Assembly (NCBI GenBank): GCA_018970215.1
Contig: JAGWWX010000003.1
Span: 4,668 to 68,667 of the forward strand
Source: Acidobacteriota bacterium
Lineage (GTDB): Bacteria > Actinomycetota > Acidimicrobiia > Acidimicrobiales > RAAP-2
Reading direction: 5' to 3'
DNA: 64,000 nt
Below are positions 8,856-18,646 of this stretch, piece by piece. Position 1 is the first letter of the stretch. Each line of letters begins with the position of its first letter. The notes below the pieces were generated by a model that ran no database searches, was not told the DNA's origin, and saw nothing but the letters and a program-made list of their open reading frames with translations. Made by a program: the position numbers and the translations under genes.

Positions 8856-10550
8856 GTGCGCATTGCCATGCTCCAAATCAACCCTGTTGTGGGTGATTTG
8901 GTGGCTAACTCCACCGCCCTCCTTGAAGGCTACGAACAGGCGATTCGTCTTGGAGCGGTCTGCGTCGTCAGCCCGGAACTGGCCCTTTCCGGCTATCCAC
9001 CCGAGGACTTGCTCCTCAAGGACGGGTTTATCTCCGATATTCACGACCACCTCGTTGCCATCGCGGCACGAGTGGGGCCGGTGCCTTTTTTAGTCGGCGC
9101 TCCATTAGAGGCGGGGGTTGATGTTACGTTGGCTCCCCCTACCGACGCGCGACGAGTGTCGCAAGTGGCGGTGCCTACTCGCTCCACCGCACTCGGAAAC
9201 TGCGTGGCGGTCTTACGCGACGGTCGCATCGAGGACGTGGCGGTGAAGCGACTGCTACCGAACTATGACGTTTTTGATGAGCAGCGCTACTTCCAACCCG
9301 GTGTCGGCGATCCCACGATTATCTCCGTGGGATCCGAACGGGTCGCCGTTGTGGTCTGTGAAGATGCGTGGGTGAGTGATGGTCCACTCTCTTTGGTGGG
9401 TGACGTTGACGTAGTGGTGTCCGCCAACGCGTCGCCCTATGTTCGAGGTCGCCAGAGTGAACGCGAAGCAATAGCCGCCCAACGTGCACGCGAGACCAAT
9501 GCGTACTTTCTCTCGGTGAATGCCGTTGGTGGGCAAGACGAACTGGTTTTCGACGGCCAGAGCTTTGCGATGAATCCCTCTGGCGAAGTCATCGCTCGAG
9601 CGGGAGCTCACGTCGAACAGATACTGATGGTCGACACCGACGACACCGCGGCAAATGCCATCGCCATACCCCTCGATCCTCTGGCCGAGGTATATCACGC
9701 GTTAGTTCTCGGCACCCGCGACTACATCCATAAGAACGGTTTTCGATCGGTGATCGTTGCGATTTCGGGTGGTGTGGACTCCGCGCTCGTCGCCGCGATC
9801 GCGACCGACGCCCTCGGACCCGATTGTGTCCGGGGATTCGCCCTGCCGAGCCGCTATTCGTCGGAACACTCGCGCACTGACGCGGCCGACCTCGCTCGTC
9901 GATTGGGACTCACTCTCGAAGAGATTCCTATCGAAGTTGCTCACGTCGCACTGTCGTCCTCCCTCGCCCTCGCGTTAGGTGGCGAGCCGTCGGGTTTAAC
10001 AGATGAAAACCTGCAGTCTCGTATTCGGGGGGTCGTCATGATGGGCATTTCGAATGCCACCGGCGCCGTCGTTCTGACGACCGGCAACAAATCAGAGATG
10101 GCCGTCGGCTATTCCACTCTGTATGGCGACTCTGCGGGCGGCTTCGCCGTCATCAAGGACGTCCAGAAAACTTTGGTCTACGACTTGTGTCGATGGCGCA
10201 ACGACGAAGCTCGCCGAACAGCCGGTGATGAGTTGATTCCACTTTCCATTCTGACGAAGGCACCGTCCGCCGAGTTGCGACCCGATCAACGTGATGATCA
10301 GTCGCTGCCGCCCTACGACGTGCTCGACCCAATTTTGGAGATGTACATCGAGCACGACGCGACGGCGGCGCAAATTGTGGCGGCCGGACACGACGCTGCA
10401 CTCGTGGCACGTATTACTTCGATGGTGGATGCCGCGGAGTACAAACGTCGACAGTCGCCACCTGGTGTTCGTATCACCTCGAAGGCATTCGGAAAAGATA
10501 GGCGGATGCCCATCACGAACCGTTATCGCGGCCTTGAGGGTGCGAAATGA
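8856..10550 (+). CDS. nadE: Glutamine-dependent NAD+ synthetase
   Basis: N-terminal nitrilase domain (SPEL..SGYPPEDLL, K.LLPNYDVFDEQRYF, VCEDAW) plus SGGVDSA, ENLQSRIRG, TTGNKSE and PSAELRPDQ.D motifs. Confidence 0.96.
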   Translation: MRIAMLQINPVVGDLVANSTALLEGYEQAIRLGAVCVVSPELALSGYPPEDLLLKDGFISDIHDHLVAIAARVGPVPFLVGAPLEAGVDVTLAPPTDARRVSQVAVPTRSTALGNCVAVLRDGRIEDVAVKRLLPNYDVFDEQRYFQPGVGDPTIISVGSERVAVVVCEDAWVSDGPLSLVGDVDVVVSANASPYVRGRQSEREAIAAQRARETNAYFLSVNAVGGQDELVFDGQSFAMNPSGEVIARAGAHVEQILMVDTDDTAANAIAIPLDPLAEVYHALVLGTRDYIHKNGFRSVIVAISGGVDSALVAAIATDALGPDCVRGFALPSRYSSEHSRTDAADLARRLGLTLEEIPIEVAHVALSSSLALALGGEPSGLTDENLQSRIRGVVMMGISNATGAVVLTTGNKSEMAVGYSTLYGDSAGGFAVIKDVQKTLVYDLCRWRNDEARRTAGDELIPLSILTKAPSAELRPDQRDDQSLPPYDVLDPILEMYIEHDATAAQIVAAGHDAALVARITSMVDAAEYKRRQSPPGVRITSKAFGKDRRMPITNRYRGLEGAK

Positions 10551-11053
10551 TGGAGTTCGATATTCACAGCAACGAGGATCAGGCGAGGCGGATCGAAGGG
10601 TGTTTCACGGCGCTGTACGACGTTATTGGTCGACGGTGCCGCGAAGTCAATGACGACGGCAACACCATTGCACTCCACGGTATTGCCCGTGAGTGTGGCG
10701 AGTGGGCAGCTCGGTTCCGTGATCTCGGTCCGCATCGCGCCGGGGCACCTCGGAATGACGCGACTCCGAATGCGAGTGTGACGGAACTGCTGGAGGATGC
10801 ATTCACGCGTGACGCGTCAGGCTCGCTTGTCCTCTACGCACTGGTTGTTGAGATTCTCCCTCCTTTGCTGATTGTCTTGCGAGATACAACAATGTCGATT
10901 TCTCCTCCAACTCGCGTGGGGCAACGCGCGAGTGAAGCAGCAAGCTTTCTCGTTGCGACACTGCATTCCCTCACCTCGTTGCTCCGCGATCGATCGCCCT
11001 CCTTGCATCTGGAGGAGTTTGCGGCCCAATCAAGAGATAAATTTCACATTTGA
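10547..11053 (+). CDS. Hypothetical helical protein (possibly ferritin-like fold), coupled to nadE
   Basis: ATGA overlap with nadE; 168-aa ORF with no recognised motif. Confidence 0.55.
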   Translation: MMEFDIHSNEDQARRIEGCFTALYDVIGRRCREVNDDGNTIALHGIARECGEWAARFRDLGPHRAGAPRNDATPNASVTELLEDAFTRDASGSLVLYALVVEILPPLLIVLRDTTMSISPPTRVGQRASEAASFLVATLHSLTSLLRDRSPSLHLEEFAAQSRDKFHI

Positions 11054-11061
11054 GGGAGTTG

Positions 11062-11085
11062 ATTTCGGTCGGAATGGACCGAAAT
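11062..11085. terminator. Hairpin after the nadE operon
   Basis: ATTTCGGTC-ggaatg-GACCGAAAT, a 9-bp stem 8 bp after the stop. There is no U-tract. Confidence 0.45.
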
Positions 11086-11456
11086 GATCGCACGATGTTG
11101 GCGAGCTCACCCCTATACTCGTATCCCACTCTCGGGGGGTCGAGAGGATGTCGGAATGGAGTTAAGCAGTGCAAAGTCCCTATTTTTCAGGGTTTTTGGT
11201 CATGCGGGGGGTCGCAGTGGCTCCGCATGGGAGTCGTCGTGTTACACCCGGCTGTCAGAGTAATAAAGGCATGAACAGCATCACCTCCTTCCTCATAAGA
11301 GGCAACTTCAACAGGGCCGCATAAACGTTTATCCGGGCGTGTCCCCGTCGACGCATCGAGTCGGCACGACATCTCGATGCCGCAGTCTTTGGAACTGCAT
11401 ATGCATAGCGCCGTAAGGCGCACCCTAGGAAGTTTTGTGAAGAAATGAGGAAGTAA

Positions 11457-12287
11457 ATGAGTACCGGAGAGAACAAATACTCACGGACGTCAACGAATGA
11501 CTGGACACTGCTGGCGCGGTTGCCACTGTTGAACCAGTTCGAAGAGTACGACCTTGGCGTAACTATCCAAGACGGATTCGCCGCCGAGAAGGAGTTGGCG
11601 AGCAACTCGGACTTGTCGGCGAAGGAGAAGCGTCGCTTGCGGCGGGCCGTGGAAGACGGTGTGCTCGCGCGGCGGACGTTGTTTGAGCACAACGTACTTC
11701 TGGGAGTGAATGAGGCGCACAAAACGCGGGGCGGTACCCTCACGGAGCGTGAGAACTATGCCGTGGAAGGTGTGTGGCGGGCCACTGAAACGTTCGATCC
11801 CGCGCGGGGCACACGCTTTTCAACGTACGCCACGCCGTGGATTCGTAACTATGTGAATCGTGGCACCGGGGCGGATCGACTGATCTATCTGCCCGAAGAG
11901 GTGCAGTTGGAGGCCAAGCGAATGTACGGCTACATGGCGGAATTCGTTTCGGTACATCACCGTGAAGCCACGTACGCAGAGGTTGCCGATGGCTTGGGCG
12001 TTTCAATCTCTCGCGTCAATGAGGTATTGCGCGTGGCTCGCGGTGTCGATTCGCTCGACGTCGTTCGGTCCCCTGATGGTGATCTGACGTTGGGCGACAT
12101 GATTGTGGACGGCAACTACGGCGGATTAGATGCCCTCGAGGACACTCTTGAGGCAGAGGGTCTGCTGGGGGTGACCGCGGCAACCGTCACCGCTCACACG
12201 GTGCACGTCGGTGGTCTGATCCGCCCCATTGACGTGGAGCCTCTCAACCGTCTCCTGCAGTTCTTGGAGAACGGAGGTCAGCAGTGA
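11457..12287 (+). CDS. Sigma-70 family factor, regions 1.2-2-3 only (no region 4)
   Basis: LPLLNQFEEYDLG (1.2), EGVWRATETFDPARGTRFSTYATPWIR (2.2-2.4), LIYLP..REATYAEVADGLG (3) and SLD..LTLGDMI (3.2). GAGGA RBS. Confidence 0.85.
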   Translation: MSTGENKYSRTSTNDWTLLARLPLLNQFEEYDLGVTIQDGFAAEKELASNSDLSAKEKRRLRRAVEDGVLARRTLFEHNVLLGVNEAHKTRGGTLTERENYAVEGVWRATETFDPARGTRFSTYATPWIRNYVNRGTGADRLIYLPEEVQLEAKRMYGYMAEFVSVHHREATYAEVADGLGVSISRVNEVLRVARGVDSLDVVRSPDGDLTLGDMIVDGNYGGLDALEDTLEAEGLLGVTAATVTAHTVHVGGLIRPIDVEPLNRLLQFLENGGQQ

Positions 12288-12469
12288 GCGAACGGCGCCG
12301 ACACCTTTCTGCGGAGGCCTCCGCATTCTTGGCGGCCCGCTTTGGGACCGTAACGGGCGTTCCTCTGACGCTCGAGGAGCTCGCCAACATCATGGGAACA
12401 ACGCGAGAGCACGTCAGGGTTCTGGAACGACGCTTCCTTCGTGAAGCACAAGAGATCGCCGCGTCATAG
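12284..12469 (+). CDS. Stand-alone sigma-70 region 4 (HTH) polypeptide, 61 aa
   Basis: LSAEASAFLAARFG..GVPLTLEELANIMGTTREHVRVLERRFLR matches region 4.1-4.2. It has its own GGAGG-N6-GTG start, overlapping the upstream TGA (GTGA). Confidence 0.8.
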   Translation: MSERRRHLSAEASAFLAARFGTVTGVPLTLEELANIMGTTREHVRVLERRFLREAQEIAAS

Positions 12470-12481
12470 GCGTGTGGAAGG

Positions 12482-12517
12482 GTCGTTCATCGGTGCATTT
12501 ATCCACCGATGAACGAC
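12482..12517. terminator. 14-bp stem hairpin between the two sigma genes
   Basis: GTCGTTCATCGGTG-catttatc-CACCGATGAACGAC. Confidence 0.6.
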
Positions 12518-12572
12518 TGCTACCGCCTATCGAACGAAACGGGGCGGAAAACGGGTAGAACAACTAGGGATT

Positions 12573-14060
12573 TTGAAAGAGGGGACCTTCTACGTGGTGA
12601 AGGATCGCATAGACCGCGACGATGAGGACGGCGTACGTACGTATCTCACGGGCATCGGTCAATACAACCTGCTGAATAAAGAAGGCGAAGTCAAACTCGC
12701 CAAGCTGCACGGCTACGGCAAGTTGGCGACTGAACTCTTGACACTCGCAACCGAGAAAGGCGCGCTCGACGCGCTCACGCCAGAGTCGCAGATTACGTTG
12801 TCGGAAATCGTCGAAGATCTTGAAGTGACGGAGTCTCTCGATGGACGAACCAACACATCATCATTCGACTATGCGGTCTACGAAATTCCGAGTTCTCTCC
12901 ATACCACGATGCGAAACTTCGCCGGCAAGCTCGAGTTAGTGAAGAAGGGCAAAGCGGTATCAAAGGATGCGCGCACCGTCAAGCTCACGCCCCGTGAAGT
13001 CATTCCCATGAAGCGATTAAAAGTTCGAGGCGAAGAAGCACAGGAAGAGTTCGTCACTTCCAACCTCCGACTCGTGGTGTCAATTGCCAAGAAGTATCAG
13101 GCGTCGGGTCTGCCGCTCCAGGACCTTATCCAAGAGGGCAACTTCGGTCTGATGCACGCCGTTGAAAAATTTGACTACCGCAAGGGCTTTAAGTTCTCGA
13201 CCTACGCCACGTGGTGGATCCGCCAGTCGATCACTCGTGGTATCGCGAATACGGGTCGCACAATTCGCCTTCCCGTTCACGCGGGCGACACGCTCGCACG
13301 GGTACAAAAAGCGAAGAACCGACTGGAAATCAACTTGGGTCGTCCGCCCACACTCGTGGAACTGTGTTGGGAAACCGACATGAATGATTGGACGCCGGAG
13401 AAGAAACGCCAAGAAGCTGAGAAGGCCAAAGCTGAGAAGAAGGAAAAAGCGGCCAAAAAACTCGAAGGTGATGACGACGTCTCTGCGCCATCTGCGAAAT
13501 CTGCAAATAAGCGTTTTTGTCCACGTAGCCCGTGGGACCGAGGCTCCACGTACGAGGTCGGCGAAATCGTGTCGTATAAGCAGGTCTTTTACATCGCCGT
13601 TAGCGATACGACCGGCGACGAACCTCAAGGTGATAGCAAGGACAAGTCGTGGGCGAAGTATGAAGACCGCGGCGAAATCTGCGGTAACAAGTGCAAGGCT
13701 CTCAAAGATGCGCTGACGTACGCCAATGATCCCGTTTCGCTGTCTGAACCTCTGCGTGAAGACGGAGACGCCGAGCTCGGTGATGTCATTGAAGATCGCT
13801 CGGTGGTCTCACCAAGCGACGTGGCTGCGGAAAGCCTGATCCCGGGTGAAATCAAGCGAGGTCTGACGGTCCTGGAAGACCGCGAGCGTGAGATTTTGAT
13901 CAAGCGATACGGCTTAAACGGAGGCCGCCCGCTGACACTCGAAGAAGTGGGCGAGCAGATGGAGTTAACGCGTGAACGGATTCGCCAGATTGAATCACGC
14001 GCAATGAGCAAGCTGCGTCACCCCGCCGTTGATATGGGCTGGCGAGATCTCTTGAACTAG
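12573..14060 (+). CDS. RpoD/HrdB-like sigma-70 factor with an enlarged non-conserved region and a CBM5/12-like insertion in region 3
   Basis: DGVRTYL..IG..NLL (1.2), [46 protein letters not shown] (2), TLEEVG...[19 protein letters not shown] (4). The start may instead be GTG 12594 or 12597. Confidence 0.92.
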
Positions 14061-14830
14061 AGCCCGCGACGGCGCCGAGTACGCCGACCGGCGACAGCCA
14101 AGACGGCCAACACCATCGCGCCGACGAGGTATGGCGTGTGAGGCGTGCGTCGGTCGCGTGCCCGTACGGGATGCGAAAATACGAGAGTGGGCCAGCTGTT
14201 CTCTTGGGCGATTCGGGCGAGGGGCCGATCAGGGTTCACGGCAAACGGATGCCCCACGGCACTCAGCATGGCGACGTCCGTTTCGGAGTCGGAGTACGCA
14301 CTTGACGATGCAAGATCGATGTCACGTTCATTCGCAAGGGCCCGTATAGCGACGGCCTTGTTGTCTCCTTGACAGAAAAATTCAAGGCGTCCGGTGTAGC
14401 GACCGCGATCATCAACTTCAGCTCGAGAAGCAATCGCCCCCGTGACACCGATAATGTCCGCGAACGGCTCCACAATTTCCGCTGGCGACGAGCTCACAAT
14501 CCAGACTTCGTCCCCGGCGGCGAGGTGGTGATCAATGAGTTCGAGCGCTTCACGGTAAATGAGCGGCTCAATTACTTCGGCCAAAGTTTCCGTGACGAGG
14601 GCCCGGACTTCGTGGCGGTCCCAACCTTTCGCGATGGCCAACATCTGCTCGCGAAATTTCTCCATTTTGTTGTGGTCGGCACCGAACCACAAGAACATGA
14701 GTTGTCCGAAGACGGCACGGGCCAACGTGCGACGCTGGATGAACCCCTTCGCTCGCAATTCCGGCCCGAGAGCGACCACCGACGCTTTCGCGATAACGGT
14801 TTTGTCAAGGTCGAAGAAGGCGGCTCGCAC
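14057..14830 (-). CDS. HAD-IB family hydrolase (SerB-like)
   Basis: [20 protein letters not shown] and AVNPDR motifs, plus a C-terminal TM segment. Confidence 0.88.
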
Positions 14831-15534: not shown

Positions 15535-16187
15535 TTCGACTCAATCCCGAGAACGCTGTTTAACTGACGAGCACCTTCCGGCGTGACGAGGAAGTACACC
15601 TTGTCATCTTCTTGTCCGTAGAGGCCCTCGATATCGAGTCGACCGGTGCCGGCGCGGACGACTCCCACGACACGAATGTCGTTACCAGAGTTCAGTTCAC
15701 TCAAGAGTTGACCGGCGAGGGTGTCGGGCAAGAAGCGTTCGATGAGCGAAAGTTTCCCGGAGTCGGCGGTCCACGCGATTGTCTCGTCTTCGTTCAGGAG
15801 CCAGCGACGTACTTGCATGGTGGCCCACGTCACGGTTGCGACGGTGGGGATGCCGAGGCGCTGGTAGATATCGGCGCGCTGGGGATCGTAGATGCGAGCG
15901 ACGACATTTTTGATATTGAACGTGCCTTGTGCAATGCGGGCGCAGAGAATGTTGGTGTTGTCACCGTTCGTGACTGCCGCAAAGGCGTCAGCGCCGTCGG
16001 CCCCCGCCTGTCGCAAAATGACGCGATCAAACCCGGAGCCGATGACGCGCTGTCCAGTGAAGCTCTGGCCGAGTCGACGAAAAGCGTGGGCGTTCTTGTC
16101 AATGATGACGACGCTGTGGCCATCTTCAGAGAGTTGTGTTGCGAGCTCGCTTCCCACGCGACCACAACCGACGACAACGATATGCAC
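15531..16187 (-). CDS. trkA: TrkA family K+ uptake regulator (RCK; CeoB-like)
   Basis: HIVVVGCGRVG, FAAVTNGDNTNI and VVARIYDPQRA..YQRLGIPTV motifs. Confidence 0.9.
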   Translation of the reverse strand: MHIVVVGCGRVGSELATQLSEDGHSVVIIDKNAHAFRRLGQSFTGQRVIGSGFDRVILRQAGADGADAFAAVTNGDNTNILCARIAQGTFNIKNVVARIYDPQRADIYQRLGIPTVATVTWATMQVRRWLLNEDETIAWTADSGKLSLIERFLPDTLAGQLLSELNSGNDIRVVGVVRAGTGRLDIEGLYGQEDDKVYFLVTPEGARQLNSVLGIESK

Positions 16188-16306
16188 GATGTCTATCTGA
16201 CCACTTCTCCGTGCGAAACGCAAGTTTCCCCGTCGCACAAATATTTCGCCCTAACCTGTGCTTCGTGGATAAAGCCGGAGAGCAGATAGTTCGTAACTCT
16301 CCGGTA

Positions 16307-18646
16307 TTGACGTCACACGCCGACACCCGGTCGTTCTATCCCGAGCCTTTGGGCTATCGACTGAAGCGGTTATTTCTCGGAAAGCCGTATGTTTCCGAAC
16401 AACTGCGCGGCGAACGGTTGAACAACCCGACGGCTCTTGGCGTTCTCGCCCCCGACTGCATTTCATCGTCATCGTACGGCGCCGAGCAAATTCTGACCCA
16501 GCTCACCCCCGTCATTGGTTTGGCCGCGTTCTCGTTACTCGTTCCCATCATGTACGTCATTTTGGGTGTTCTCATACTGGTGACTCTCTCATATCTCGAC
16601 GTCATTGGCGCCTACTCGGTCATGGGTGGTTCCTACATCGTCACCCGGGACAACTTTGGGCCAAAGACGGCACAGATCACTGCGGTGGCGTTGCTCATTG
16701 ACTACATCGTGACGGTGGCGGTGCAGTGTTCCGCGGGAACGGCCGCTCTCACGAGTGCGTTTCCTTCACTTCTGCCGTACACATTGACCATTACGGTGTG
16801 CGTGATTTTGCTGCAGATCTATGCCAACCTGCGTGGCATTAAGGAAGCGGGGGCGTTCTTCGCGTTTCCGACGTACTTCTTTGCCACGATGATGACCATC
16901 ACCATCGTGGTGGGGTTTTATAAGCACTTCGCGGGAACCCTGCCCATTCTCCCCGTGCCGTCTCACGAACTGTTGGTCGGCGGTCAGCTCGGAACTGGTG
17001 GGCATGGATTTCTCTATGGCGTTGCCTTCATTACCTTGCTCCGTGCGTACGCCAACGGTGGTTCGTCCCTGACGGGGCTCGAAGCAATCTCCGACGCCGT
17101 GTCGGGATTTCGACGTCCCGAGGCGCGCAACGCTCGCAAGGTCATGGTGGTGATGGCGCTCTTGTTGTCCTTCCTCCTCGTCGGGACCACCATGCTGGCG
17201 ACGTGGACGCACGCGCTTCCCTACGAAGCTGGTTCACCGACGGTGGTGTCGCAAGAAGTGGGCGCAGTGTTTGGGGCGCAGGGCTTCGGGCACGCAGTGT
17301 TCTTGATGGTGCAGATCGCGACGGTACTCATTCTCTATACCGGCGGCAATACCGCGTTCAATGGGTTCCCGTTCCTCGCCAACTTTGTTGCCATCGACAA
17401 GTACTTGCCACGTCAACTGACAAAACGAGGACACCGTCTCGCGTTCTCGACGGGCATCATTTGGTTAGGTGCGTCGGCATTAGCCCTCGTCATCATTTTC
17501 GACGCTCGCGTGAATGCTCTCATTTCGCTCTACGCCATTGGTGTGTTCACCGCCTTCACGATGGCCGGATTTGGTATGGCGCGGCGCCACTATCGACGCC
17601 GTGGTAAGGCTTGGCGACTCGGGATGACGGTAAGCGGTCTCTCGGGCTTCACCTGCCTTGTGGTGGCTCTCATCTTTGGCGTCGTGAAGTTCGGTGAAGG
17701 GGCATGGGTCGTCGTGGTGGCCGCTCCGTTCATGATCGCCGGACTGCTCTATCTCAATCGTCAGTACGTCCGCGAGGAAGAAGCGTTTGGCGCGAGTGGC
17801 GGTTCTTCAGCGCTCGCGACGTCACACAATCGGATTGTCATCTTCGTTGATCAGTACGACCTCGCGACGGAACGCGCTCTCGCGTACTGCAATTCCTTGA
17901 ATCCCTACTCCGTCCGTGCCATTCACTTCGACATCGACCCGGCGGTCACACGAGAGCTCGAAGCGCGCTGGGGACGCAAAGGAACAGCCTCGGCCGCGAT
18001 TCCTCTCGAAGTCATGGAGTGTGAAGACCGACGAGTTGATCGTGCCGCACTTGAAGTTGTCTCGGACATGGTCCGCGATCCCAAGGTCTTCGCCATGGTC
18101 ATTTTGCCGCGACGCGGGTTCCGCTCGCGCATCCAACGACTGTTGCACGATCGCACTGCTGACACCATCGCAACGGCCGTCGTGAATGTTCCCCGCACTG
18201 CTGCAACCATCGTTCCCTATCGCATGGCCCCGGTTCACCACGACCGCATCACGCCCGACACCACGGACACGTTGAGTGACAGCATCACTCGTGGCGGAGT
18301 GCGGGAAGAGACGCACTTTGCGGCGGACGACAAGTTGGAGGCGCGGGCAAACGAGATTGGCGCGGTTGATATCGGCGCACTGAAACTTCGGGAAAACGCA
18401 CAGATTGCGGGCCGCGTTAAGTCCGTGACGGTCGAACGGGCGGAGAGTGGCCAGACCTTTACCTGCCAAATTGCCGATGCTTCGGGCTCCATCAAGCTGG
18501 TGTTTCAAGGTCGCTCGGCCATTCCCGGTGTTGAACGTGGCGTGCGTCTCTTAATTAAGGGAACCGTGACGTCGTTTCACCGCGAAGCGGTGATATTGAA
18601 CCCCGAATACGAGATTGTCGGGGGCGTTGGTGGGGACGAAGAGTAA
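16307..18646 (+). CDS. APC-superfamily (KimA/YdaO-like) permease fused to a C-terminal OB-fold domain
   Basis: LKRLFLG.P...ERL, DCISSSSYG, LLIDYIVTVAV, ALTGLEAISD-like and LPRQLTKRGHRLAFSTG motifs. The C-terminus has IAGRVKSV..IADASGSIKLVFQGR..I.NPEYE (OB fold). The start is uncertain. Confidence 0.85.
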   Translation: MTSHADTRSFYPEPLGYRLKRLFLGKPYVSEQLRGERLNNPTALGVLAPDCISSSSYGAEQILTQLTPVIGLAAFSLLVPIMYVILGVLILVTLSYLDVIGAYSVMGGSYIVTRDNFGPKTAQITAVALLIDYIVTVAVQCSAGTAALTSAFPSLLPYTLTITVCVILLQIYANLRGIKEAGAFFAFPTYFFATMMTITIVVGFYKHFAGTLPILPVPSHELLVGGQLGTGGHGFLYGVAFITLLRAYANGGSSLTGLEAISDAVSGFRRPEARNARKVMVVMALLLSFLLVGTTMLATWTHALPYEAGSPTVVSQEVGAVFGAQGFGHAVFLMVQIATVLILYTGGNTAFNGFPFLANFVAIDKYLPRQLTKRGHRLAFSTGIIWLGASALALVIIFDARVNALISLYAIGVFTAFTMAGFGMARRHYRRRGKAWRLGMTVSGLSGFTCLVVALIFGVVKFGEGAWVVVVAAPFMIAGLLYLNRQYVREEEAFGASGGSSALATSHNRIVIFVDQYDLATERALAYCNSLNPYSVRAIHFDIDPAVTRELEARWGRKGTASAAIPLEVMECEDRRVDRAALEVVSDMVRDPKVFAMVILPRRGFRSRIQRLLHDRTADTIATAVVNVPRTAATIVPYRMAPVHHDRITPDTTDTLSDSITRGGVREETHFAADDKLEARANEIGAVDIGALKLRENAQIAGRVKSVTVERAESGQTFTCQIADASGSIKLVFQGRSAIPGVERGVRLLIKGTVTSFHREAVILNPEYEIVGGVGGDEE

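Follow-up and report, generated by a model that had tools for sequence, protein, structure and literature searches.

The 64-kb window analysed here (64,000 nucleotides (nt) of contig JAGWWX010000003.1, to which positions refer) harbours three sigma70-family genes in tandem on the plus strand, designated open reading frame 1 (ORF1), ORF2 and sigma2 (Table 1). Throughout, sigma2 denotes the third gene and its product, unless the domain sigma2 is named. ORF1 is preceded by a non-coding stretch of 403 nt, and a spacer of 124 nt separates ORF2 from sigma2. Downstream of sigma2, a HAD hydrolase gene, two trkA genes and then an amino-acid permease gene follow on the opposite strand. No further sigma genes were found within the 64-kb window beyond this locus. 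In the initial annotation two remodelled group-1/2-like sigma genes in tandem were described, with a free-standing sigma4 gene between them, a structured leader, and nadE and HAD/trk genes as flanks. The ORFs and their Pfam domains, the Sigma70_r4 match of ORF2 (3.4e-8), the conserved leader with its covarying hairpins and the gene content of the flanks bear this out. Likewise, no anti-sigma or two-component gene is recognisable among the neighbours, in line with the initial annotation.

Table 1. Positions of genes, insertions and predicted RNA or promoter-like features at the sigma locus
Feature	Position	Strand	Remarks
nadE	8856-10550	+	upstream flank
168-amino acid (aa) gene	10547-11053	+	between nadE and leader; no family match
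Bipartite promoter-like motif ATCGCAC-N20-TATACT	11087-11119	+	head of ORF1 leader
Structured leader	11120-11456	+	candidate 5' untranslated region of ORF1; conserved, covarying hairpins; ~330 nt
Candidate 17-codon upstream ORF MNSITSFLIRGNFNRAA	11271-11324	+	inside leader
Leader hairpins	11334-11347, 11353-11380, 11382-11398, 11408-11421	+	3' third of leader
ORF1	11457-12287	+	276 aa, sigma70-family
Shine-Dalgarno GGAGG of ORF2	12268-12272	+	inside last Gly-Gly codons of ORF1
ORF2	12284-12469	+	61 aa, sigma4 only
Strong hairpin	12466-12530	+	between ORF2 and sigma2; candidate terminator or processing site
Promoter-like motif ATCGAAC-N20-TAGAAC	12529-12561	+	5' of sigma2
sigma2	12594-14060	+	488 aa; regions 1.2, 2, 3, 4
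Helical insertion, regions 1.2/2.1	12720-13004	+	~95 aa, sigma non-conserved region; not in 312-aa orthologs
Nested insertion in sigma3 helix-turn-helix	13365-13694	+	four cysteines, helix, beta module; omega 0.07-0.19
Lys/Glu-rich helix of sigma3 insert	13389-13463	+	
CBM5/12-like beta module of sigma3 insert	13527-13661	+	

The succession of hypothetical gene, leader, ORF1, ORF2 and sigma2 was observed in six diverged lineages, namely the window, L002, L001 (which matches L004, a locus of a metagenome-assembled genome in GTDB), L003, L120, and L121. HAD, two trkA genes and the permease gene continue 3' in L001, L003, and L121; the contig of L120 ends just after sigma2 and that of L002 just after ORF2. 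Co-occurrence elsewhere had been named as a check in the initial annotation, and the three genes were found together in every relative with ORF1. An ORF1 ortholog is present in only 1 of 185,579 species-representative genomes, and a metagenome scan for ORF1 orthologs added none beyond the contig of L003. The clade is thus narrow, and the arrangement is confined to uncultured freshwater/estuarine Acidimicrobiia-like actinobacteria.

An assembly error can be excluded for the ORF1/ORF2 junction. Positions 11000-12456 are spanned without insertions or deletions by contigs of four unrelated estuary and freshwater runs, and more than 20 member sequences, each assembled independently, again show an ORF1 of 276/277 aa. 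Lengths of 276/277 aa for ORF1, 61 aa for ORF2, and 488 aa for sigma2 are repeated across dozens of independent assemblies of an organism that is common in freshwater and estuary metagenomes. Together with the conserved orthologs, the indel-free runs and recurring lengths rule out an assembly or frameshift artefact at this junction.

ORF1 matches the Pfam families Sigma70_r2 (3.6e-8) and Sigma70_r3 (9.7e-11), and no Sigma70_r4 match was obtained above threshold; the single sub-threshold r4 match falls within sigma3. The protein comprises regions 1.2, 2, 3, and 3.2, followed by a vestigial sigma4 reduced to the first helix (LEDTLEAEGLL) and, at the end, a conserved helix (IRPIDVEPLNRLLQF). Its best NCBIfam match, the actinobacterial SigB model, covers model positions 41-243 of 328 and ends before sigma4. 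In case of L003, L120, and L121, ORF1 is 301-314 aa long and the match to the SigB model reaches positions 316-325 of 328. In the alignment, a deletion of about 20 aa relative to these three lineages, common to the window, L002, and L001, takes out the helix-turn-helix of ORF1. Accordingly, the sigma4 helix-turn-helix is missing from ORF1 of the window, L002, L001, and L004, and a degenerate sigma4 is kept in L003, L120, and L121. Identity of these cis sigma4 segments to canonical sigma4 is 29-33%, and the equivalent of E585 is lost. G273 and G274 of ORF1 are invariant among the lineages. The AlphaFold2 (AF2) model is confident for domains sigma2 and sigma3 (residues 20-195) and disordered at residues 232-260.

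As judged from these family matches, ORF1 appears to descend from a SigB/RpoD-type ancestor. Identity of ORF1 proteins to any group 1/2 sigma factor is about 30-34%, and in a neighbour-joining tree they branch basally with long branches, which did not settle an origin of ORF1 as a recent duplicate of sigma2.

ORF2 aligns to positions 176-225 of 238 of the RpoD_Cterm model and corresponds to part of region 4.1 plus the helix-turn-helix of region 4.2. ORF2 proteins are 35-45% identical to canonical sigma4, retain the RFG and TLEE cores, and keep equivalents of E. coli R584, E585, and R588. A word-index search for relatives of ORF2 returned only one copy with 98% identity, and in an exhaustive phmmer search the matches were limited to orthologs and generic sigma4 segments. 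Outside this clade, small sigma4-like proteins standing alone are encountered sporadically.

The stop codon of ORF1 and the GTG start codon of ORF2 overlap as GTGA, and the GGAGG of ORF2 is placed 6 nt 5' of this start. A clear Shine-Dalgarno sequence (GGAGG, AGGAGG or AAGGAG) precedes ORF2 by 5-9 nt in five of the six lineages, and L003 carries the weaker GGTGG. ORF2 is a separate gene in all six lineages, joined to ORF1 by an overlap of 4 nt, an overlap of 1 nt, or, in case of L120, a gap of 43 nt with a different frame. Due to this variation of overlap, gap and frame, programmed frameshifting is unlikely and separate but coupled translation is favoured. A slippery site is also missing, and with a Shine-Dalgarno sequence before each ORF2 start, a programmed ORF1-ORF2 frameshift was rejected. 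The tight coupling suggests that both proteins are made in matched amounts.

These observations bear on the description of ORF1 as a "split" sigma factor in the initial annotation. This description holds insofar as ORF1 is without a helix-turn-helix in the subclade of the window. It does not hold for the origin of ORF2, since ORF1 of L003, L120, and L121 retains its own sigma4. By this comparison ORF2 is an additional sigma4 gene, older than the loss of the helix-turn-helix from ORF1.

Pairwise ratios of nonsynonymous to synonymous substitution rates (dN/dS, omega) place all three genes under purifying selection, with values between close lineages of 0.16-0.24 for ORF1, 0.11-0.36 for ORF2, and 0.025-0.1 for sigma2. 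Protein divergence accumulates roughly eightfold faster in ORF1 than in sigma2 (dN of 0.316 vs 0.039 between the window and L001), and the identities between the window and L003 amount to 36% for ORF1 and 86% for sigma2. This rate and the degenerate region 2 and sigma4 of ORF1 would be in agreement with ORF1 and ORF2 as functionless, decaying remnants of a duplicated sigma gene. We consider this highly improbable due to intact reading frames and dN/dS values far below 1 for both genes, including a value of 0.22 for the ORF1 tail in the sole pair with unsaturated dS. Furthermore, the length of ORF1 is constant per lineage throughout six lineages and dozens of assemblies, and both the Shine-Dalgarno site and the leader are conserved. 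Pseudogenisation, which the initial annotation had named as a refuting condition, is thus unlikely.

Complementary domains are encoded by adjacent genes in all six lineages, sigma2 and sigma3 in ORF1 and sigma4 in ORF2, with the Shine-Dalgarno sequence of ORF2 situated inside ORF1. Moreover, the trans sigma4 stays canonical while the cis sigma4 of ORF1 decays. The most likely reading, to which we give an even chance, is that ORF1 and ORF2 together form a two-subunit alternative sigma factor. ORF1 would contact core RNA polymerase and recognise the -10 region via its domains sigma2 and sigma3, and ORF2, docked on the beta-flap, would recognise the -35 element in trans. ORF2 would have arisen while the sigma4 of ORF1 was present, followed by degeneration of this cis sigma4 in every lineage and by complete loss of the helix-turn-helix in the subclade of the window. 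As an outcome, ORF2 would be the sole intact -35-reading module encoded by the gene pair.

Several observations speak against a two-subunit sigma factor. A full sigma4 of ORF1 occurs alongside ORF2 in three lineages (L003, L120, and L121), from which it follows that ORF1 did not originally depend on ORF2 for completeness, and ORF2 may serve a different purpose. The first helix of region 4.1 and the sigma3.2 tether are both absent from ORF2, and stable docking on the beta-flap is thus an assumption. In L001-type ORF2 a proline occupies the R584-equivalent position. Region 2 of ORF1 is divergent in the subclade of the window (WW to PW in region 2.3, altered region 2.2), and competence of ORF1 as a sigma factor would follow from family membership and purifying selection only.

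Due to the coexistence of ORF2 with a full ORF1 in three lineages, the main alternative, which we rate as rather unlikely, is that ORF2 is no subunit of ORF1 but a sigma4-like modulator acting autonomously. Possible roles are those of a small helix-turn-helix repressor or activator, a sigma4 mimic competing for the beta-flap, or an anti-sigma-like binder of ORF1, and ORF1 would then be a lone sigma factor independent of the -35 element. The position of ORF2, directly 3' of ORF1 and translationally coupled to it, is the classic one of an anti-sigma gene, and the sporadic stand-alone sigma4-like proteins known elsewhere are consistent with such a role. However, ORF2 retains the -35-contacting residues and the RFG/TLEE core better than the sigma4 of ORF1 itself, and the cis sigma4 decays wherever ORF2 occurs, as redundancy would yield. 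Furthermore, we know of no anti-sigma factor with a sigma4 fold.

In the mechanical ORF list, sigma2 starts at TTG 12573. GTG 12594 is likely the true start and yields the 488 aa also found in the orthologs and in P0001. Pfam matches to Sigma70 regions 1.2, 2, 3, and 4 occur in this order, accompanied by a weak match to CBM_5_12, and no Pfam match to Sigma70_r1_1 was obtained. Separate RpoD-type proteins of 388-452 aa with r1_1 are present in Acidimicrobiales (P0184, P0200). The top Foldseek matches of the sigma2 model are sigmaA chains in holoenzyme structures; only such chains were returned, and the search was uninformative on the insert. The scores of sigma2 lie below the curated NCBIfam cut-offs (RpoD 304 bits vs 555, SigB 274 vs 464). 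The matches are broken by the insertions, and the uninserted 312-aa P0043 is below the cut-offs as well. By domain content, sigma2 is a principal-like (group 2/SigB-like) sigma factor, similar to the actinobacterial group 2 factors SigB and HrdA-D in having regions 1.2, 2, 3, and 4 without region 1.1.

Regions 2 and 4 of sigma2 are nearly invariant in comparison to 311-312-aa orthologs of Acidimicrobiia, and an alignment with the 312-aa orthologs shows no variation in the canonical -10 and -35 reading motifs. The 312-aa sigma factor also shares the site between nadE and HAD, and sigma2 is the positional ortholog of this near-invariant 311-312-aa family. It differs from the 312-aa form by about 175 extra residues, which consist of a 95-aa region at 1.2/2.1 and a nested insert of 110 aa in sigma3. 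In marine Acidimicrobiales (L115), nadE, a 312-aa sigma gene and HAD are adjacent, and a closer relative (L117) carries a hypothetical gene, a 463-aa insert-bearing sigma gene, HAD, trkA, and trkA without ORF1 and ORF2. Due to these two arrangements, sigma2 is the ancestral resident of the site, and ORF1, ORF2, and the leader a later insertion. Just past HAD in L115 (10107-10890 of that locus), a STAS (anti-anti-sigma-like) and a HATPase_c_2 (RsbW-like) gene are located, which hints at partner-switching control of the sigma family in these organisms. In the clade of the window, their place is filled by the trkA genes.

Sigma2 was enlarged stepwise. A short four-cysteine insertion in the sigma3 helix-turn-helix is present in P0008, P0007, P0010, and all later forms. 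A Lys/Glu-rich helix was added in L120/P0003 and later forms, and a beta module of 45 aa occurs in the window, L001, L003, and L121. Sigma2 thus acquired a four-cysteine knuckle first, a charged helix next and a CBM5/12-like beta module last, along with the helical region at 1.2/2.1. The latter insertion of about 95 aa is present in the clade of the window, has another sequence in P0007 and P0010, is modelled as helices by AF2, and shows an omega of 0.03-0.10.

C258, C309, C363, and C367 are the only cysteines of sigma2. They are kept in all insert-bearing orthologs and missing from the 312-aa forms P0043, P0112, and P0106, and the knuckle formed by them is a candidate zinc, iron-sulfur or redox site. 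The beta module matches Pfam CBM_5_12 (PF02839) in all four orthologs, the best match having an E-value of 4.2e-5. Its score of 23.9 bits is below the gathering cut-off of 26.2, which weighs against the assignment. A profile of the module searched against PDB retrieved CBM12 and chitin-binding domains (4nz1 at 2.5e-5, 1ed7, 2d49), and the aromatic signature W, Y, G, V, Y, Y, P, W is conserved in the four orthologs. AF2 places beta strands at residues 313-355 with a predicted local distance difference test score (pLDDT) of 72-81. As judged from these matches, the module would be homologous to CBM5/12 and situated within the older four-cysteine insertion. It resembles the CBM5/12 of chitinases and deacetylases in the W..Y..G..V.Y.G..Y...P...W signature and in a small predicted beta fold. 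Unlike the CBM5/12 of chitinases, it is cytoplasmic, placed in a sigma loop and flanked by cysteines. A polysaccharide ligand need not be expected, and the module may serve as a protein- or DNA-contact module. The ligand-binding-like insert of the initial annotation is thus better described as a CBM5/12-like module in a four-cysteine insertion, for which ligand binding is putative. By analogy, the four-cysteine site together with the CBM-like module may be a sensor.

Inserted segments with estimable dS show an omega of 0.03-0.19. For the Lys/Glu helix and linker the nonsynonymous divergence (pN) is low (0.05-0.19); synonymous sites are saturated there, so that no omega is given. These values point to maintenance of the sigma2 additions by selection. 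In the first 42 codons of sigma2 (12594-12719) the synonymous divergence (pS) is 0.17-0.47, compared to about 0.65-0.7 elsewhere in the gene. This suggests constraint at the nucleotide level, e.g., by mRNA structure or translation initiation.

Between ORF2 and sigma2, a hairpin of 14 base pairs (bp) had been proposed in the initial annotation. A hairpin is indeed present, but it is stronger than proposed and consists of an inner stem of 15 bp plus an outer stem, with a folding energy of -40.3 kcal/mol (z = -7.9). In the window it is not followed by a U-tract (UGCUACC after the inner stem) and was not listed by a simple terminator scan. L003 has a hairpin of different sequence at the same place, followed by TTTTCTT. 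This suggests that the ORF1-ORF2 transcript probably ends or is processed at the hairpin. In two of four metagenome runs, a fraction of the population carries one extra T in the T-run at 12570, just 5' of sigma2.

The bipartite promoter-like motif at 11087 is kept at the orthologous place in L001, L002, L003, and L004. The motif upstream of sigma2 occurs as the exact pattern in L001, L003, L004, and L121, and with one mismatch in L120. GTAGAAC is also found 5' of the L117 ortholog, which is without ORF1 and ORF2. The common pattern ATCGMAC-N20-TANNNY, defined post hoc after both sites were seen, has two matches in the 64-kb window (11087 and 12529) vs 0.3 expected, and the ATCGMAC 7-mer alone is unenriched in the window (27 found vs 30 expected). 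The spacer of 20 nt is longer than that of usual sigma70-type promoters, and a sigma70-type promoter scan of 10900-14300 gave no matches. The shared motif hints at common control of ORF1 and sigma2 and is regarded as a lead, not a finding. The hairpin and the conserved promoter-like block 5' of sigma2 suggest separate transcription units, with sigma2 probably expressed from its own, older promoter region.

In the initial annotation the three genes were considered a self-contained cascade. In such a cascade or feedback loop, one sigma factor would drive the other, the free sigma4 would serve either of them, and the sigma3 insert would act as a sensor. The permanent adjacency of the genes within the clade, the motif with its unusual spacing, confined in the window to the upstream regions of ORF1 and sigma2, its retention in relatives, and the lack of a recognisable anti-sigma gene nearby agree with this idea. 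A precedent for a cysteine-rich sensor on board a sigma factor is also given by OrbS (PMC9023288). Nevertheless, we regard the cascade as improbable. The motif was derived from its own two sites, sigma2 possesses a complete, near-invariant sigma4 and has no need of ORF2, and the strong hairpin parts the two units. Moreover, sigma2 and part of its upstream block are older than ORF1 and ORF2, as seen in L117, and ligand binding by the sigma3 insert is putative only.

The leader shares 73% nucleotide identity across four lineages including L003, the ORF1 proteins of which are 36-72% identical. Pairing in its four hairpins amounts to 97.7%, 8 pairs are compensatory, and no shuffle out of 500 was as good; with four sequences only, this covariation is supportive rather than conclusive. 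G-U pairs favour the plus strand. Long-range helices predicted by RNAalifold compete with the local hairpins, which show the cleaner covariation. The folding energy of the whole leader is unremarkable (z = -1.6). Rfam covariance models gave no match at E<=1 on either strand of 10500-14500, and a covariance model of the 3' part of the leader misses the equally long leaders of L120 and L121.

For the candidate upstream ORF inside the leader, ATG and stop codon are exactly 17 codons apart in five of six lineages, including L121, the leader of which barely aligns. The stop codon alternates between TAA and TAG, the arginine codons alternate among AGG, CGG, and CGA, and the C-terminus N.x.RA[AC]-stop is alike in five lineages. 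No clear Shine-Dalgarno sequence was found before this ORF. It could encode a leader or arrest peptide. The ORF overlaps a small CCTC/GAGG hairpin, which is replaced by CCACC/GGTGG in L121.

A more comprehensive reading joins these elements. The lineages would display stepwise outsourcing of sigma4, from a full cis copy via a decayed one to a deleted helix-turn-helix. The resulting two-subunit sigma factor would be wired to a sensing sigma2 by a shared promoter type with a spacer of 20 nt. Together with leader and leader peptide, this would constitute a self-contained module free of anti-sigma factors. We hold this combined reading to be improbable. If true, sigma2 would sense a signal directly via its four-cysteine metal/redox site and the CBM5/12-like module.

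Sigma factors consisting of two polypeptides are already known. In SigO-RsoA (YvrI-YvrHa) of Bacillus subtilis, the sigma role is distributed over two adjacent, co-expressed polypeptides, similar to what is presumed for ORF1-ORF2 (PMC7826278, citing PMC2795558, PMC5903212). The small partner in SigO-RsoA corresponds to a region-2.3-like segment, whereas ORF2 corresponds to sigma4. Unlike SigO-RsoA, ORF1 belongs to the RpoD/SigB type, possesses regions 1.2 and 3, and is not ECF-like (extracytoplasmic function). The best NCBIfam matches are SigB, RpoD, and RpoS types. By domain split and best NCBIfam matches, both systems appear to be set apart and related only as members of the sigma70 superfamily. 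In contrast to SigO-RsoA, ORF1-ORF2 offers a comparative series in which the cis sigma4 is still present in some lineages.

In T4 gp55/gp33 (PMC12867686) and in the proposed two-polypeptide pair MtvS1/MtvS2 of Francisella (doi 10.1101/2024.09.12.612765), one protein acts as domain sigma2 and a small one on the beta-flap replaces sigma4, as proposed here for a two-subunit ORF1-ORF2. T4 gp55/gp33 requires the sliding clamp, and, unlike in the phage, ORF1-ORF2 is chromosomal and vertically inherited in a bacterial clade. The protein gp33 is not known to be a homolog of sigma4 or to read a -35 element. ORF2 is a bona fide sigma4 helix-turn-helix with -35-contacting residues. OrbS of Burkholderia cenocepacia and sigma2 are alike in carrying a cysteine-rich element in the sigma factor rather than in an anti-sigma factor (PMC9023288). 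OrbS, however, is an ECF sigma factor, whereas sigma2 is principal-like with four cysteines framing a sigma3 insertion, for which metal binding is putative.

Next to the sigma genes, the 168-aa gene overlaps the stop codon of nadE and encodes a helical protein without Pfam, NCBIfam or PADLOC matches. It stays beside the sigma2-type gene outside the ORF1/ORF2 clade too. P0095, called as a 510-aa gene that continues into the sigma gene, is 31% identical to the 168-aa protein (E = 2e-11). A 179-aa gene without Pfam match occupies the corresponding position in L117. The 168-aa protein is a candidate partner of sigma2. The permease gene (16136-18646) codes for a soluble C-terminal extension with a weak match to an oligonucleotide/oligosaccharide-binding fold (OB-fold; tRNA_anti-codon), which is kept in L001, L003, and L117. 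A defence-system sigma factor (MzaA) was considered for the locus and rejected, since just generic sigma70 similarity was observed and no other defence genes are nearby. Unrelated to the present locus, L118 (375-1733) contains P0006, a 452-aa sigma factor in which the Pfam domains r1_2 and r2 are repeated after r4, apparently by internal duplication. It adjoins a transposase gene, a PemK toxin gene and an AbiU2-like HEPN gene.

Sigma factors are usually seen as single chains, and the spacing of their domains sets promoter geometry. With two-polypeptide sigma factors known as such, the novelty would lie in a two-polypeptide factor of RpoD/SigB descent with preserved intermediates, and in a principal-like sigma factor with a nested four-cysteine, CBM5/12-like insert in sigma3. 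For this narrow, uncultured clade we infer function by comparison of sequences. If true, a natural separate-gene sigma4 with intermediate relatives would show how a sigma factor is taken apart, would represent a cellular counterpart to T4 gp55/gp33 and SigO-RsoA, and would be a natural analogue of the split-sigma tools of synthetic biology. The conserved sigma2 with its four-cysteine, CBM-like module would be a candidate for a sigma factor that senses a signal directly, the insert being part of the domain oriented towards the extended -10 and spacer DNA. Given the abundance of these organisms in freshwater and estuarine metagenomes, such regulation would be ecologically relevant.

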